A stretch of 64,000 bases of DNA, from contig OZ286463.1 of NCBI GenBank assembly GCA_965644265.1, positions 81,406,001-81,470,000 on the forward strand. Direction: 5' to 3'. This DNA is from Glycera tridactyla (taxonomy: Eukaryota). Positions 24,683 through 57,900 of the stretch are shown one piece after another. Both the position numbers and the translations under genes were made by a program. The notes beneath the pieces are model-generated. The model had not been told where the DNA came from, did not search any database, and saw only the letters and a program-made list of their open reading frames with translations. Within the stretch, counting starts at the first letter, position 1. Each line of letters begins with the position of its first letter.

Positions 24683-27600
24683 TGCGGTGGCGGTTCTCTT
24701 GGTGCGAGTCATGAGCGACTTAACCGTTGATTTGTCTTATGTCCGTGTTCCATCACAAGCACAGACATTCATCGAATCGCCGTCATTCGTGCGAGTAATG
24801 CTTTCTGATTGGCTCATTCTACACATACTATCTACAACTTCATTCATAAATCGGCGCAGTGATCCATCAAACCTGGTGATGTGGTGCAAACAAGAAGCAC
24901 TACTTCACACCCCTACAAAGATCATATAAAATGTTTTTTTTCCAGATTTATGCATACAGATAAGACAGACGGATGTCGGGGAATCAATACAGATGATCAT
25001 TCCGACAGTATGTTTAGTATTTCCCCATGGGACCTGGTAATGAGGTGCGAACAAGAGGCACTACTTTTTCGAAGTGGGCGTGGCCAAAGAGCTTGATTTA
25101 CTACTTGTGCGTAGCTATACATCTCTGAGCGATCGTATCTGTGTGCTTCGGTAATCGGCAGCAAAAACGAATGTATGGCGAAATGCCCATTACGTAATCG
25201 CTACATTCCTCAAATTGTCGTTAATCAGATCAATAAATCATCTCAAAATTGTGTTAGATTAGATCATTGGATCCTTTACACAAATCCAATCAAGATTCGT
25301 TTGATTATATCAGCCTCGAGAGACAGGATCGGCGAAGTTAGAAAGCATTTCGAGCAGAGAGGTGGCAGCATAATGATCTCCAATGGAGATCACAACAAGA
25401 GCGCAAACCTGCGCTGAGTGATCTCCGATGAGAATCGGGGAATAGTGACAAGCCCTCCTTCAAGAATTCATGCCGTCATTCATGTCTATTAGGTTTGGAG
25501 CCGGGACTACTTTCACCAAATCGTGTCAAATGATCAAAGCAAATAACAAGTAGCTCTCTCTGTCTGTCTGTCTGTCTCTCTCTTGATTCCTTGACATCCA
25601 TCTGTCTTGCCTCCATGTATAAATCTCGAAAAATCTGTGTTTTGGTTGATATGATATTTCGTAGGGAAGTAAAGTAGTGCTTCTTCTTTTGCACCTCATT
25701 ACCAGAATTCATGGATCAATGCGCCGATTCATGAATGAAGTTGTAGATAGGGTGTGTAAAACCAGCCAATCAGAAATCAGGACTCAAAGTGGGCGTGCCC
25801 AAAGAGCTTGATTGACAGGCATTTACTACCTGTGCGAAGCTGTACATCTCTGAGCGATCATATTTGTGTGCTTCGGTGATCGGCCACAAAAACGAGTGTT
25901 GAGAGAATTTCGTATTACGTAATCCATACATTTCCTCAATTTGTCGTTCATCAGATCAATAAATCATCTCAAAATTGTGTTAGATTAGATCTTTCGATCC
26001 TTTTCCACAGATCCGATCAAGATTCGTTTCATTATATCAGCCTCCAGAGTCAGAATCGGCGAAGTTAGAAAGCATTTCGAGCAGCGAGGTGGCGGCATAA
26101 TGATCTCCAACGGAGATCACAAAAAGGGATAAGTCGAAATGCAGACCTCTTCTCGGAAATTTGTTTCAGGCTTTCCACATTCAATCCGGTCAGTCACTCA
26201 GTCAGTCAATCAGACGTGTCTAACTCTCATTCCGCTGACAACATTTCAGTTGTCACCTCATGTCAAAGTTATCCTAAGATGCCATCGGGAAAACATCAAG
26301 CCAAATTTCTAAGTTCTTACGTGATACCTCGTCAGACAGTCGCTTGTCAGAGTTTTGGGGTGATGGTGGTAGGGATGTTGTTATTTCTGCAGGCGTACTT
26401 TCATACCAGTTCGTTTGTAAATGCATTTGTGTGTGAGGGGATCTGTATAAGTATAGCACTTTTCGTGATGTGATATGTGTTCATACATTATGACATTGGA
26501 ATAAACTGATGTGCTGTGATGTTTGATACTACTGCAGTGAATCTCCAAGTCCGCCCCACGGATTATACTAATCCCACCACTCTGTATCCTCCGTCTTCCT
26601 GTACAACATACTGGCAACTCGAACATGAGAAGAGTGTCATNNNNNNNNNNNNNNNNNNNNNNNNNNNNNNNNNNNNNNNNNNNNNNNNNNNNNNNNNNNN
26701 NNNNNNNNNNNNNNNNNNNNNNNNNNNNNNNNNNNNNNNNNNNNNNNNNNNNNNNNNNNNNNNNNNNNNNNNNNNNNNNNNNNNNNNNNNATTATTATCA
26801 TGGTTACCTCCTAATACCTTCATCTTGGAGTTGTTATTGGCTCTGCTGATAAAACCATAAACTTAGTTTTCCATAGTCCTAGGATTGCTCCAGTAGATCA
26901 GAATGTTCTGCTGATAATCTCCCTCTGATGTGATCGTTTTTCTCTCACATCAATGTTTGAGGTTTGTCAGCTGTTACACGTGGGCCTATGGCCTCACCAG
27001 GCCTGTCGTCCTTTGTTAAGTATAGTTATTAAAACGAAGAACAGAAATACAATGATGATGATGATGAGCTGTCCTGGTCATTTCCAGGATATGATATTCA
27101 TCGACCTTGCTGATGAGAACATTCGCCCTTTCCATGTGTGGCCACGTCCCGTAAGGGGCCCTCTAGGAACCTCGCTGAATTCATTGTTAGCTCATTTTGA
27201 GGCTGTTTTCTCACTAGATGACGTCATCGAGTGGGGTCACTACGTTCGATTGCGTCACTTGACAACGAGAATGTTTCTGTTTGTCTCGGATGAGGGGGCT
27301 GGCTTGACGGCTGATCCGGTCAACCCACATACAGTGTTTCGGCTTCATCCCATCAACAGGGTACGTTCCTGCCACAATTTTTCTGGCATTTCTATTTCTA
27401 TATAATTTTCACACGTCACAATCTGCTGGTACCAGACACGCCAGTTTGAAGTCCTGGTTCAAGTACTGCACTTCACTATGGCTGATTATATGCTATATGT
27501 AGGTCAATGTATATCATAGAATGTTGATGATTTGAATTTCGGCTAATTCTACTCTACTTCTTGTATGGCTCAAGTCACCTTACCATGAAGGTGATGCATA

Positions 27601-51900: not shown

Positions 51901-54900
51901 ACCAGAATAATGAGACGTCTCGCCGGCGGAATGAAGGTACCGTGAAAGTCAGTGCGTCGATTAAAAGGGTGAAGCCATGTAGTACAATCAAAATCACTTC
52001 GAATGCCCCTCCTTTGCAGAGGTCACTTATCATTGGATTAATTATAATCGATGGATCAATATTCAATACTTTGGAGAAAATAACATAAAGAAATTTTGAT
52101 AATTCTCACTAGATGGGGGGGGGGGATCGACCGTTTCACATGATTTTGAGATGAGGTGGAATTTTTTAGCATCTTTTTGTATGAAGATGGTGTATCATAA
52201 GTATACTCAAAAAAACGTTATCCATGATATAAAATGTATCTTTTTTACATTGAAACTCAACCAATTTTCTCTATGCTTCACAGAAAACCCTCTTACCTCG
52301 GCTGAAGTATATTCATCAGATTACCTCGAAAAAGAGACTCTCTCATTCAGATGATTACATCTTCCTTGATTCATATTACAGAATATGGATATATCTCGGT
52401 CGGATATATTCACCTCGGAATATTTCTCACTGATTAACATGGAGTATCTAAAATGGCATTGGGTGACTCGAATGCATCATCTAGTTATCAAGCATCACCC
52501 GAGAAGCGGTTACCAGGACGTTATAGTACACATGTGTCTAACACATGGAATATTTCTTTCAGAGATTATTTCCGTTGGCCGCTCCCGTATTGACTAGAAA
52601 GAGACAGGTGGTAACACTCGAACAAACAATGGACTTCCTGATGAGAGCCAATGCGGAGTCTCCAGATGTAAGCTGCATACTCGTCTCCATAGTCTCCCCT
52701 TTACTATGCGTAATTTGACTCGAATTAGAATATTACCTCCAATTTATCTCCATGTTCATACTGGTGTGATGATAAATTGATGAGAGGGACTTCATCAATG
52801 ATCGAATAGATACAAAAACAATTCGTTAGTTATCTCATGAGAACTGAATTAGAAGTTATCACACTTCATTACATTATCGACTGGAGATGTGTTGGAAAAC
52901 ACATGATATATTGAAAAATGAAGCTGGTTGAAGATATCCACACAAGTTTGTCTATTTATTCCTCGGGGAAAACATAGGTGAGTTACGAGTATAAGCACAG
53001 GAAAAGGTTTTCCTCGTGAGTTCAATCCACATAGATAAATTCTTAAATGACCTGAACTCTCTAGTTGATATGACCTGAATGAAAAAAGTAGTCGCCGATG
53101 TCGTGGTAGTTACTAAAAAGTGTCCTTTCAGTGCATATTTTATCACATGCAGTGCATCCATGCAACTTGAAGTACGTTTGGTGGTAGGACGAAATGAATG
53201 CATATATTAAGAGGATCATCAATAGAATGGTATCGATGTTGGATGTTGTGACTCGCCCAATCAATGGATCAGATAATTGAATGAGTCTTTTGACCGACAT
53301 ATTTTTTAATGCGCGGTATAAAAGCTGCTGCTCCCACTGCAGGTGTCATCACTTCTTATCGTCTACTCATTGAGAGGTGCATACTCTAATTTTAAAAGAA
53401 TGGAATTGAATCCTTCTAAGCATGCTCTGAAAAATGACAGTTACTATCAATTTCTCTTTTCTAGAATGTGACGGTGACTTCAGTTTCACTTTTAAAGTGC
53501 TGAAAGTCAAATTTGACTTTCTCGGTACGCTTCCTTCTTGATAGCCTCCGTCATGTACCGTATGCGACACAATCAGAATTTTATGGGGACATCATCTAAG
53601 ATACGATGTTTTTGCGATATTTCCACCGCCCGCAGTGAGAACTTAGTATTACTGGTATTTCACCTATCTCAGATAGACACTGTTCATTTATTTCAATTAC
53701 AGGAAATCAAAATCACCAGAGGAGAAATGCAACAAGTGATGCCAGCAATTGAGGAATCACCGAATGCAGTCAGTGTGAGTTATATACGTCATGAACATAT
53801 ACACCATATACTTCCATAAAGTTAGCCAAGTATATCTAATTTCACCGATACACTCGCAGCACGTGGAAAACGGATACTCGTCATTTCAACTGTCAAGTTT
53901 TAAAAAGAAACGCCATTCTAACAATCTGCACGAGAGTAACACATCTGCAGGAAAAGTAAAAGTGGTATACCTTGATGAGCTGCAGTAATACCTAATACTC
54001 ACTCTGTATAGAATATCACATACCTGTTGCCACATACAAGTCCCCGTGCTCCGGTATGCTGCCCGAAACATTGGTATTCGACCTCTTTATCACGCGTTCC
54101 CTATTCTTCCCTTCTTTCGAATAGTCATATTTGACTTGGCCCATAAGCCCAGGTCTTTCTAACAACATATCAGTATCTATCTCCTTACATCGCCAATTAA
54201 GGTCTTCTCCTACATACACACTCAGCTGGTCTAGATGTGTGCAAACCATTTTTAACACCATTTATATGTCATAATTCCTTTTGTATAAGTCATCTTTATG
54301 CTCTTATATTCTGGGAGCAAGTGATCCTTGGGGACCATACACAGTGATCCTTGGAGGCCTACTTCAGGGCTTGATTTCTTGTCTAGGGTAGCTCCCGCTC
54401 CCTGGTGCTCAGTCATGTAGAATTACTATTTTCGCTTCCCCCCTGATGATGGACGCCCAGAGTCCGAAAAGCTTCGTGGGAAAATGTTTTGTTTTCTTGT
54501 CTGAGATCTTCTGTGAACACCAGGAAGATTAAAATGGAAGTGTGGAGCTCAAGTCTGAGTTGTGTCTTCTCCTCTTCAAACTCATATAATATCTGTAGTG
54601 TAATGGTTTTCTGAAAGATCAAGGTGAACTCCTTCATCGTCTTCCTTGAAGGCAATCTTGCTGATATCAACTGCACCTAGATATGCTGAAAGTTGGATAG
54701 TATTCTGCGAAACACCGATAGCGATATAAATACGGTATCCGAAAAAAACTATGGATGGATGGTCTGACCTTTGTCAACATCAGAATAAGGCCCCGTCTCA
54801 TACTTCGGAATCAAAAATTACTTCCCACATATTCGTCATTTTCTGCAGGAAGATGACCAATTGCACAAAGAGGAGCTTGAGCTGAATGAACAGTTTCAAG

Positions 54901-57900
54901 TCTTCGTGCGACAGATCGAGGAGGCACTCATTCTCATGACTGACAAGAAGCCACAAAAAGGCAAAAGTAAGTCTACCAAATATTTCAACTTCATCTGAAA
55001 AAAAGGAAGAGGATTAGGGCCAGAAGAAGTGGGTTTGAGCGAAAAATGAGTGGATAGTTTATGTGTCGAGGTGTCTGATATCGAATCCGTGTGTTCATGT
55101 TAACCATCAGATGAGACTGACAATGGGTTTTAGGGATATAACAAGTGTTCTACGATGATCCCAAGGAGCAGAAATATGATGGGATTTCAAGATGTAACGT
55201 CAGGGCAATCTGTGCAATTGCAATGCGGTAAAACCCAACCACAGCAACCTGAAGTTCCCATCCAGACAAAATAGGGGAGGACATCATCAGGACATCTTAC
55301 TTTCAACACCTTTAAGACCAGACTCAAAACACATTTGTCCAATCTTGCTTTTTTCACCAACTTGATTTTATGCCTTGCTTTTCAGGTACATTTTCATGTA
55401 AAGCACTCTTGAGCTTATTATCAAGTGGATAAGCAATCTCTTGTAGTGAAGACGAAAACGATTTGAGTTACAAATTTCACAAAGTCTGCCGATTTCAAAC
55501 ACGTGTATATACATCACATAGATGGATCCGAATCCGAGCAATCAGAACTTCTACTTAGTCGGTTGACCAATCGATACTTGGCTGGCACCATTGTGACAAT
55601 CTATATGATCTGTACTTCCACTAAAGTAGGTAACATTTTATAGATTTAACTGAACGAAACGCATTGGTCAAACTCATACACGCAACTCACATGCCAATGC
55701 GTACTTGGCTATAGGCCGTAATGATGATGATGAGAGATAGCCATGCGTTTCATATGCGAGGGTATACAAAGAAGTAATCCGGCGGTGTTGAACAAGGCCA
55801 AAGTTTCAAATTACCAGGCTTCAAACCACTGCAATATCATGAAAGAACTGTAGTGAGCTTGAAGACGATTTTTCATAGGACTCAATTCGCTTGATTCCGG
55901 AATGGACCTGTCAGACTTTGCAGTGAGTTGAGAGTTGATTATTAAATTGTCATCGATATTTCCAGGTGCAATAGGACGTGCTAAAGATGACTTGGCAGGT
56001 GATAAAGGCTTTCGGTCTTTTATCAGAGTATTCATAGACGATAGTCGCTCGAAAGATGTGGCCGAGAAATACCAGCCTCTCGTTGTTATCATAGACCATT
56101 TACGGTAAGTACAAGTGAATGTAGTTGAGATCTAGATCAAGTGATCGAATGATCGAAGTTAAATGACATGTATCAACCTGAAGAATGTTTCATGACGTGT
56201 CTTGCAAGTCTATGGATCACGAACCCTGAACACAAAATTAAGGAGAACCAGACACGTTGCCAGCCGGACGTAGCTGACATATCAGGAACACCTCTACAAG
56301 CCTGATATAACACGATGGCTCACATGAGCGCGTAATACGACCCACGAGGTCATGTGTGAATTTGTAACATATATCACTATCTATTATGTACAAATGTTCT
56401 AATGCAATAGTAACTCACTTACCTGATAGTGGTGTACATACCCCATTATCGACGGACACACAGGGCGCAACTCATGTAATGCACAACGGTCAATGCATCA
56501 CTTATGCCATATACCTCCATACCATTTTTCCAACAGAGGTTCCACAATCAGATAATTTTCAATTTAACAAAGCGTCAGTGAAAGGGGTGATTGGTCATGG
56601 GGGATCATAAGCGAAATGCAAGCTGGTATGAAACGGGTAATCGGAACATTTCTGTTTGTTCTGTTCCTGATAGCCGTAGTAGTGTGAGGGAAAGGGTTGG
56701 TAAATCGACCAAGCAGGATGAAAGAGTTGACACGTACTGCCTACATATCCTGAAGTTCATCTTAGAGACCAAGATCCGTGATCTTCCTACAAACTGGAAG
56801 AATCGCAGACAAAGAAAAAGTTCACGGTAAGTACATTTTATACTTCCGGTTGAAGACATTGCATTTAGCAATGATGACTTCAGCTGGTTTTTGAATGACA
56901 AACACCTCAGTCTTTTACTCAATTTCGCCTCATACAAAGAAACTCAAACGATTGGATATTATCTCCAATTGCCTCGCCTCTTCTGTTCCTCCTTGATCCC
57001 TTATCGCGGCATAGAAACCATCAGATCTGTGTGAGTATACACAAGTCTTGTTTTGTATGGGTACATGTATGAGTCAGTGTAGACGTAGTTTCATGCTGAA
57101 ATGGTGTGATAGATTCTTCAATCTGTGACTAAATAATTTGCAAATTTGGATAGACGAACACCAGAACGAACTATGAAATATAAAACATTCAAACATTTCG
57201 GACGAGACTTCGTTGTTTGCCTGCCTGTTCAGATGAAGATACGACTTCATTGCTAGACGCTCACCGTCTAGGTCATGCTGCTTCACCTATGTAAGCTGAG
57301 AATGATATTTGAACTACTGACATCCGAGGTACAGCGACTTTTTTCGTGCACCATGTCTTTATCATCAACCGCCAGCTGATCACAGGTTCCTGAGATGGCG
57401 TCACGCGACGGCTTCCGCTTCCTTACGATGTTCCTCCTGTAAAACATGAAATGTTACCTGTTATTCACTTGTAAAATTCCCCACGATCATCATCATCATC
57501 ATTATCATCATCATCATCATTTTGCTGCCAGCTAATTGTCATGTTTCATCAATGTTCCCGGAAAAAAGGCATGATAGATATCGAATAATACCCTCATATT
57601 TTGTTTTATTAGCAATATCTCCGCGGGGGTCTCCTGAGACACTCGAATATGCATGGACTGCTGATATACTGGCTTGGGTTACTGAGAGAAATACGAAATA
57701 TATGGTTATATAGAGATGACTTGGGTGATGCCAATACTGCGTTTGATTTTCTTAGACTACTGAGCGAAATACACGAGATACAGAACTTCTTTGTGGACCA
57801 TGGCCTAGTGGATGCGCTACAGCTGATGATGATGCGTCTCGAGGATAAAGACATACAACAGGAGGTGCTTGCCCTCTACGGTGCACTGCTCTTCGGTGCA

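Follow-up and report, generated by a model that had tools for sequence, protein, structure and literature searches.

A minimal hammerhead motif in an intron of Glycera tridactyla as a probable remnant of a Penelope-like element with a third, zinc-finger open reading frame

A minimal type I hammerhead ribozyme motif at positions 54436..54482 (+) of a 64,000-nucleotide stretch of the Glycera tridactyla genome (hereafter, the window) is very likely the terminal-repeat hammerhead of a truncated copy of a Penelope-like element (PLE), inserted on the sense strand of an intron, and is likely to be a neutral, poorly cleaving or silent leftover. Thousands of hammerhead leftovers of this kind exist in animal genomes, and the ribozyme is unremarkable among those already described; what appears to be new is the parent, an EN+ PLE with a conserved third ORF of the C2H2 type. 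Judged from the sequences of longer copies, this parent is a Neptune-type element that encodes a reverse transcriptase (RT) with a GIY-YIG domain and, downstream of these, a zinc-finger ORF3.

Every hammerhead part claimed in the initial annotation was found where it had been placed, on the + strand. The 5′ arm of stem I (54436..54442), which carries one extra C, precedes the catalytic box CUGAUGA (54443-54449); a single additional base, U54450, which the annotation had not described, extends this segment (54443..54450) before stem-loop II (54451..54465), which has a 7-nt loop and 4 bp formed by GGAC (54451-54454) and GUCC (54462-54465). The segment 54466..54475 comprises the GAAA box (54466-54469), AGCU (54470-54473) and the UC at 54474-54475, with cleavage predicted after C54475, and it includes the very short palindromic stem III, AAGCUU (54469-54474). 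The 3′ arm of stem I (54476-54482) is followed by the PLE tail (arm and tail, 54476..54591), a sequence with a fixed 3′ end that precedes ORF1 in longer copies. The core elements CUGAxGA, GAAA and UH are present in type I order, in columns that are invariant across the aligned motifs, and the G10.1-C11.1 pair corresponds to G54451-C54465. The motif differs from its family at four positions, including C54441 (A in the family), which creates a C-U mismatch (54441/54477) adjoining the core.

This arrangement is not due to chance, as indicated by shuffled controls, by its recurrence at 98 exact places and by covariation across families. The site at 54436-54482 was the only one recovered by a hammerhead pattern search of the 64-kb window, and 300 dinucleotide shuffles of the window yielded a mean of 0.03 loose matches per window and 0 strict matches. 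Two exact motif patterns were located at 38 and 98 places in the genome, the latter with a 26-base pattern, and the reversed controls of both gave 0. Among 22 motifs taken from the examined loci, 9 of the 11 stem pairs change on both sides, the palindrome included, and each of the two inner palindrome pairs has changed in a compensatory manner in 4 of the 22 sequences; paired cells amount to 91.7%, versus 74.7% in shuffled and 28–39% in slid controls, although the covariation count is biased toward structure because the 22 rows were chosen by pattern. The flanks diverge between families, and the ribozyme is kept.

A covariance-model check had been proposed for this site, and the Rfam hammerhead families gave no match at the gathering score over the whole window and none at E ≤ 10 over 54000-55000, a result that lowers the probability of membership in an Rfam family, not that of hammerhead-like working. 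Simple folding of 54420-54500 was no better than that of shuffled sequences (z = 0.59), and fold energy alone therefore fails to reveal the motif. An unfiltered covariance model run over the window and its 30-kb flanks (94,000 bases, with 2,206 masked bases of the window outside the scan) returned only this motif, at 55 bits in a model whose training set contained it, and the next score was 13 bits. The earlier report of no second hammerhead in the window thus holds for the scanned bases; the accompanying idea that the ribozyme is tolerated because one copy cannot dimerize gains from the lack of a partner in 94 kb and is strengthened by the stem I mutation.

The motif is located on the sense strand of a 1,074-nt intron between two predicted exons on the + strand, an upstream one of 72 nt (53703..53774; AG/GT ends, open frame) and a downstream one of 118 nt (54849..54966; AG/GT ends, compatible phase). 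Across 15 scanned segments of the window, a RIH_assoc exon (E = 1.3e-9) and a weak MIR exon (E = 0.006, below the cut-off) were detected on the + strand, and an Ion_trans exon on the same strand lies approximately 14 kb past the window end (E = 3.7e-5, below the cut-off, with 66 of 91 downstream ORFs scanned). Taken together, these domain exons make an IP3R/RyR-family channel a fair reading of the host gene, and the proposal of a sense-strand location within an intron of a Ca2+ channel gene is borne out to this extent. The host gene exons (window 20719-61096 and L239:3679-3849) returned no PDB or database homolog in the searches performed, and the gene looks divergent for its family. Upstream of it, an exon at 9404-9772 (+) with a 7tm_2 match (E = 1.7e-7) belongs to a secretin/adhesion-type receptor gene. 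Elsewhere in the window, a CG-rich array of short degenerate repeats with approximately 10-nt units such as AACGTCGT occupies 14173-14743 and is unlike the surrounding DNA; direct repeats of 300 nt (95%; 598-897 and 1472-1771) and 125 nt (91%; 25275-25399 and 26002-26126), as well as an inverted pair of 98 nt (24793-24890 and 25688-25785), are probably other mobile elements.

The hammerhead is embedded in a dispersed repeat at 53997..54591 (+), a 5′-truncated 3′ end of a Neptune-type PLE consisting of the 3′ non-coding region, the pLTR with the hammerhead, and the tail. The boundaries of this 595-bp copy were defined by BLAST comparison with 29 other copies, and its identity to longer copies is 84–89% over 576–595 nt. 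A DNA search of the 2.04-Gb genome found 39 other places at 85–92% among the 40 scored of 429 candidates. The search for copy number and parent suggested with the initial annotation led to a dispersed repeat whose related copies preserve the stems and whose parent is a Neptune-type PLE. The right end is fixed, in that 23 of the 29 copies stop within 7 nt of each other (54585-54591), approximately 115 nt beyond the cleavage site, and AAT/ATT/ATC-type repeats adjoin 20 of the 29. The AT-rich sequence TAATA at 53993..53997 (+), found again at 54587-54591, is tentatively regarded as a 5-bp target-site duplication on the basis of the flanking sequence. Comparison of the copy with 30 GIY-YIG/RT proteins matched no coding remnant, the region being the non-coding 3′ part. 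Copy 5′ ends at the cleavage site were also considered and rejected: copies that run into ORF1 start at scattered places (about 54451, 54493-54508, 54522 and 54532, or upstream of the ribozyme). One family copy is adjoined by tandem single-exon ORFs (L088:2215-2991 and 9417-9998, minus strand), which from their motifs we take to be short-chain dehydrogenase-like.

Longer copies continue to the left of position 53997 on the same strand, through approximately 1.3 kb of non-coding sequence and then into an ORF that ends in a short helix, and beyond this ORF end lie a twin C2H2 region and RT/GIY-YIG remnants. The window copy is connected to these coding regions by a chain of loci: it is 84% identical to L090 over 595 nt, and L090 is 84–91% identical to L159, which holds RT-EN and ORF3; L160 connects the ORF3 end to the ribozyme; and L158, whose 5′ end matches 54508-54594 of the window at 87%, presents this tail first and then ORF1, RT and ORF3 in order at one locus. 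The tail likewise precedes ORF1 in L215, L218 and L223. The RT and GIY-YIG matches in L159 and L158 are decayed, L158 is without part of RT-EN, both loci are separated from their 3′ ends by 7–17 kb of other DNA, and for the window's own family the loci examined included no full-length copy free of interruptions.

These relationships bear on the proposal that the insert is a PLE or retrozyme remnant. The terminal repeat is also found on short units that have lost internal sequence, at L216, L217, L219, L223, L224 and L019/L025, some of them in tandem (L019/L025, with a spacing of about 511); these units are non-autonomous, retrozyme-like derivatives of the window family. The sharing of the terminal repeat by such units (L216, L217, L219 and L224), the tandem copies, and the derivation of retrozymes from PLE ends described in a recent preprint (bioRxiv 10.64898/2026.07.22.740005) would suit a non-coding retrozyme monomer that spreads through circular RNA rather than a truncated coding element. 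However, collinearity with the 3′ region of the coding element extends along the entire window copy, longer copies carry on leftward from its boundary as far as ORF3, and the window copy is single, without a unit-length repeat structure. The retrozyme half of the proposal is largely refuted by this collinearity and is retained with very little probability, whereas the PLE half stands, as a truncated Neptune-type 3′ end.

Compared with the column majority of the 29 other copies, the window copy differs at 4 of 47 ribozyme positions and at 17 of 246 positions elsewhere, and within those 29 copies 31 of 376 core positions have changed, versus 539 of the 7,079 remaining positions; the similar rates in the core and the rest indicate that inserted copies decay without selection. 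All 13 core bases are intact in the window copy, and a full core is retained, by chance, in 10 of the 29 others. Position 54441 is A in 92 of the 98 exact motif matches and C in 2, and C54441 disrupts stem I right next to the core; the additional base ahead of stem II is A in 94 of the 98 and U only in the window copy. In folding predictions, which ignore tertiary contacts, the active dimer was the minimum (−27.7 kcal/mol) for four family-type copies and was nearly favored for a fifth, whereas it was not favored for a sixth that has mutations of its own. For the window motif, the active dimer was predicted at −23.7 kcal/mol, 3.8 above the minimum, with core-adjacent stem I pair probabilities of 0.01–0.08. 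When 100–250 nt of context are included, some family-type copies also lose stem I, and the contrast is thus clearest for the bare motif. The window copy is accordingly described here as predicted to disfavor the active dimer, and because of this prediction regulation of the channel gene by the ribozyme is unlikely.

Adoption of the ribozyme by the host to tune the splicing or yield of the calcium-channel transcript is highly improbable. It would agree with the sense-strand position inside the intron, and an action on pre-mRNA has been suggested, though not proven, for the intronic hammerheads of amniotes (PMC6765202), but the ribozyme is no more conserved than the rest of its repeat by the counts given above, bears a damaging stem I change, has neither a long stem III nor a partner, and is one of many similar dispersed copies. 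A subtler effect is conceivable, albeit improbable: the ribozyme might cleave a minor fraction of the channel pre-mRNA, either through trans pairing with hammerheads on PLE transcripts or with the aid of the PLE protein, a cut that would be tolerated because the exons are still joined. The intact core, the presence in the genome of young, intact tandem families with the same AAGCUU palindrome, and the cleavage of an Anolis PLE ribozyme with help of the element's own protein (PMC11167929) count against the leftover reading and in favor of this one, the last two making help or pairing in trans possible. The stem I mismatch and the disfavored dimer weigh against it, as do published data: a minimal hammerhead of Schistosoma is reported to show no cleavage as a monomer and low cleavage even as a dimer (PMC4209133), and the Anolis data reportedly contain no RNA ends at the cut site (PMC11167929).

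The earlier suggestion of a possible cut in the pre-mRNA, with consequences for splicing or yield, is therefore not upheld, given the lack of excess conservation, the disfavored active fold, the absence of a partner and the weakness of published minimal hammerheads as dimers; that same weakness qualifies the statement that minimal type I hammerheads usually cleave efficiently as dimers (PMC4209133), of which the short palindromic stem III is confirmed. The preferred reading, that of a leftover, can be framed as follows. The element's protein would have nicked AT-rich DNA, and target-primed reverse transcription may have started internally in the RNA, at the tail, and ended once 595 nt had been copied, by analogy with the Anolis PLE (PMC11167929). 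In active tandem elements, the palindromic stem III would bring two hammerheads together, and these may cleave multimeric RNA (PMC4209133; PMC6765202). The remnant in the window would be transcribed as part of the intron and likely spliced out uncut, as the lone copy, with no partner in cis and a stem I mismatch, would rarely be in the active form before splicing.

The zinc-finger ORF of the parent proved to be a recurrent feature of related elements. A search with the finger region of the window's own family gave 114 matches among the 150 scored of 267 candidates, and of 18 finger loci examined, 9 show an RT and/or GIY-YIG ORF upstream of the finger ORF and in the same orientation, while a hammerhead follows downstream in 15. 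Young, intact head-to-tail arrays (L193-L196; C1:147.04-147.08 Mb and C7:90.81-90.84 Mb), with an inverted copy at one end, repeat a 6.9-kb unit in the order hammerhead, ORF1 (360–372 aa), ORF2 (745 aa), ORF3 (552–565 aa, with Pfam zf-C2H2), approximately 1.2 kb of non-coding sequence, and hammerhead; their hammerheads have U, not C, at the cleavage position. Pfam RVT_1 and GIY-YIG were matched on ORF2 of L193, and the CX2-5CxxC linker before the endonuclease was observed in ORF2 of L193, L204, L205 and L202 as well as in the L159 translation. In L193-L196, L205 and L209, tandem units were found in which the coding region is flanked on each side by a pLTR with hammerhead and tail. At all seven junctions viewed, a Met belonging to ORF2 lies close to or inside the ORF1 end; this conserved Met overlaps the ORF1 end in L158 (4180-4460), L193 (6940-7200), L202, L204, L205, L209 and L210, and ORF2 is in the +1 frame relative to ORF1 in L193, L195, L202 and L205.

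An RT tree of 13 rows, midpoint-rooted, drawn only from elements of this genome and including a short, long-branched L159, groups six finger-bearing families with L158 and L159 as a clade (100/100) separate from the remaining five rows. Controls were negative: nothing matched ORF3 within 1.5 kb of the 30 best GIY-YIG loci, which mostly belong to one family, and a C2H2 ORF was absent from five further RT loci. ORF1 was dismissed as a novel feature, since upstream ORFs also occur in families without ORF3 and in the published fish Neptune, which has two ORFs, one of them upstream (PMC12602865). A comparison of the PLE RT with phages gave no match. In a whole-genome GIY-YIG search, 149 of the 150 scored loci among 4,525 first-look candidates matched; the Glycera genome is very rich in PLEs, with many families that each have their own hammerhead variant.

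Substitution patterns argue that ORF3 is a real protein gene under purifying selection, with dN/dS values of 0.10–0.17 in six pairwise comparisons of four copies and 0.32 over a 152-codon stretch of two decayed copies of the window's own family. Close to its start, ORF3 is predicted to contain a GT-AG phase-0 intron of 435–500 nt, by script in five of six loci and by eye in the sixth. L205 has the same N-terminus without the predicted intron, which its sisters L209, L193, L199, L200 and L204 have, a difference that points to intron loss or gain within a retroelement clade. Near the ORF3 start of most families, the window's own included, lies a hydrophobic-then-acidic motif (IVIDSDE, VIVISSDE), which we take to be SUMO-binding-like. 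None of 394 candidates was an ORF3 homolog at E ≤ 0.001; in a representative library, the top 150 of 7,116 matches were all multi-finger proteins, and an Atlas search gave no result. A K-Y-G-x-A-P-R-K stretch confined to ORF3 of L205 and L209 resembles part of the histone H3 tail; when the N-terminal 61 aa of the L205 protein were compared with the PDB by phmmer, no histone appeared at E ≤ 10, and the likeness was set aside for want of support beyond this short stretch in two families.

The ORF3 product may act in the nucleus, bind nucleic acid and come into contact with the SUMO-linked silencing machinery of the host. That it is a nuclear nucleic-acid-binding protein using the SUMO-binding-like motif to counter or steer host silencing is a tentative reading of its sequence. 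With similarly limited confidence, we propose that the clade of the remnant comprises undescribed EN+ three-gene PLEs whose third gene, a spliced and conserved twin-zinc-finger gene with a SUMO-binding-like motif, might encode a protein that binds the element and acts in anti-silencing or chromatin steering. A search of the main texts of openly accessible papers returned none that describes an EN+ PLE in which a C2H2 ORF lies downstream.

The hammerhead itself changes nothing, and there is no sign of its use by the host. The parent matters because EN+ PLEs have been described as compact single-ORF elements with no accessory gene (PMC8557442, PMC6431247, PMC3846280). A conserved third gene with fingers of the DNA-binding type, which some sister families keep with an intron and others without, would offer a handle both on how PLEs escape host silencing and on how they retain introns while moving through RNA.

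Among known systems, the minimal hammerheads of PLEs resemble the window motif in the type I fold, the short stem I, the extra base between positions 9 and 10.1, the G10.1-C11.1 pair and the small palindromic stem III, and, like the window copy, they are mostly single dispersed copies from truncated PLEs; stem II of the Schistosoma hammerhead has 7–8 bp rather than 4, and the window adds the stem I mismatch, with no difference of kind (PMC4209133). The non-LTR retrozymes of metazoans likewise have a type I hammerhead derived from a PLE end and are non-coding and often intronic monomers, whereas the window copy is the truncated end of a coding element, not a tandem unit (bioRxiv 10.64898/2026.07.22.740005). 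The Poseidon element PAc of Anolis has in common with the window family a fixed 3′ tail end past the hammerhead and an AT-rich/ATT target, but it belongs to a different clade and has a single ORF that starts inside the ribozyme (PMC11167929). Terminons/Athena correspond to the parent clade in PLE class, in having several ORFs and in 3′ hammerheads; unlike it, they are telomeric and without a fused endonuclease, and the extra ORFs listed for them encode exonucleases, esterases, Rep and coiled-coil proteins rather than twin C2H2 proteins (PMC6431247, PMC5408684), esterases being mentioned in some Neptune-like PLEs as well (PMC5408684). Also close are the EN+ Neptune/Nematis-type PLEs, which share with the parent clade the RT, the CX2-5CxxC linker and the C-terminal GIY-YIG (PMC8557442), together with a pLTR with hammerhead and tail, tandem or inverted copies, microsatellite targets and an upstream ORF (PMC8557442, PMC12602865). 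The parent clade differs from them in its unit of approximately 6.9 kb, in an ORF3 of 490–650 aa with two C2H2 fingers downstream of RT-EN, in the predicted intron and SUMO-binding-like motif of this ORF, and in at least 0.7–1.3 kb of non-coding sequence before the hammerhead; with three ORFs instead of one, it is not a plain member of that group.
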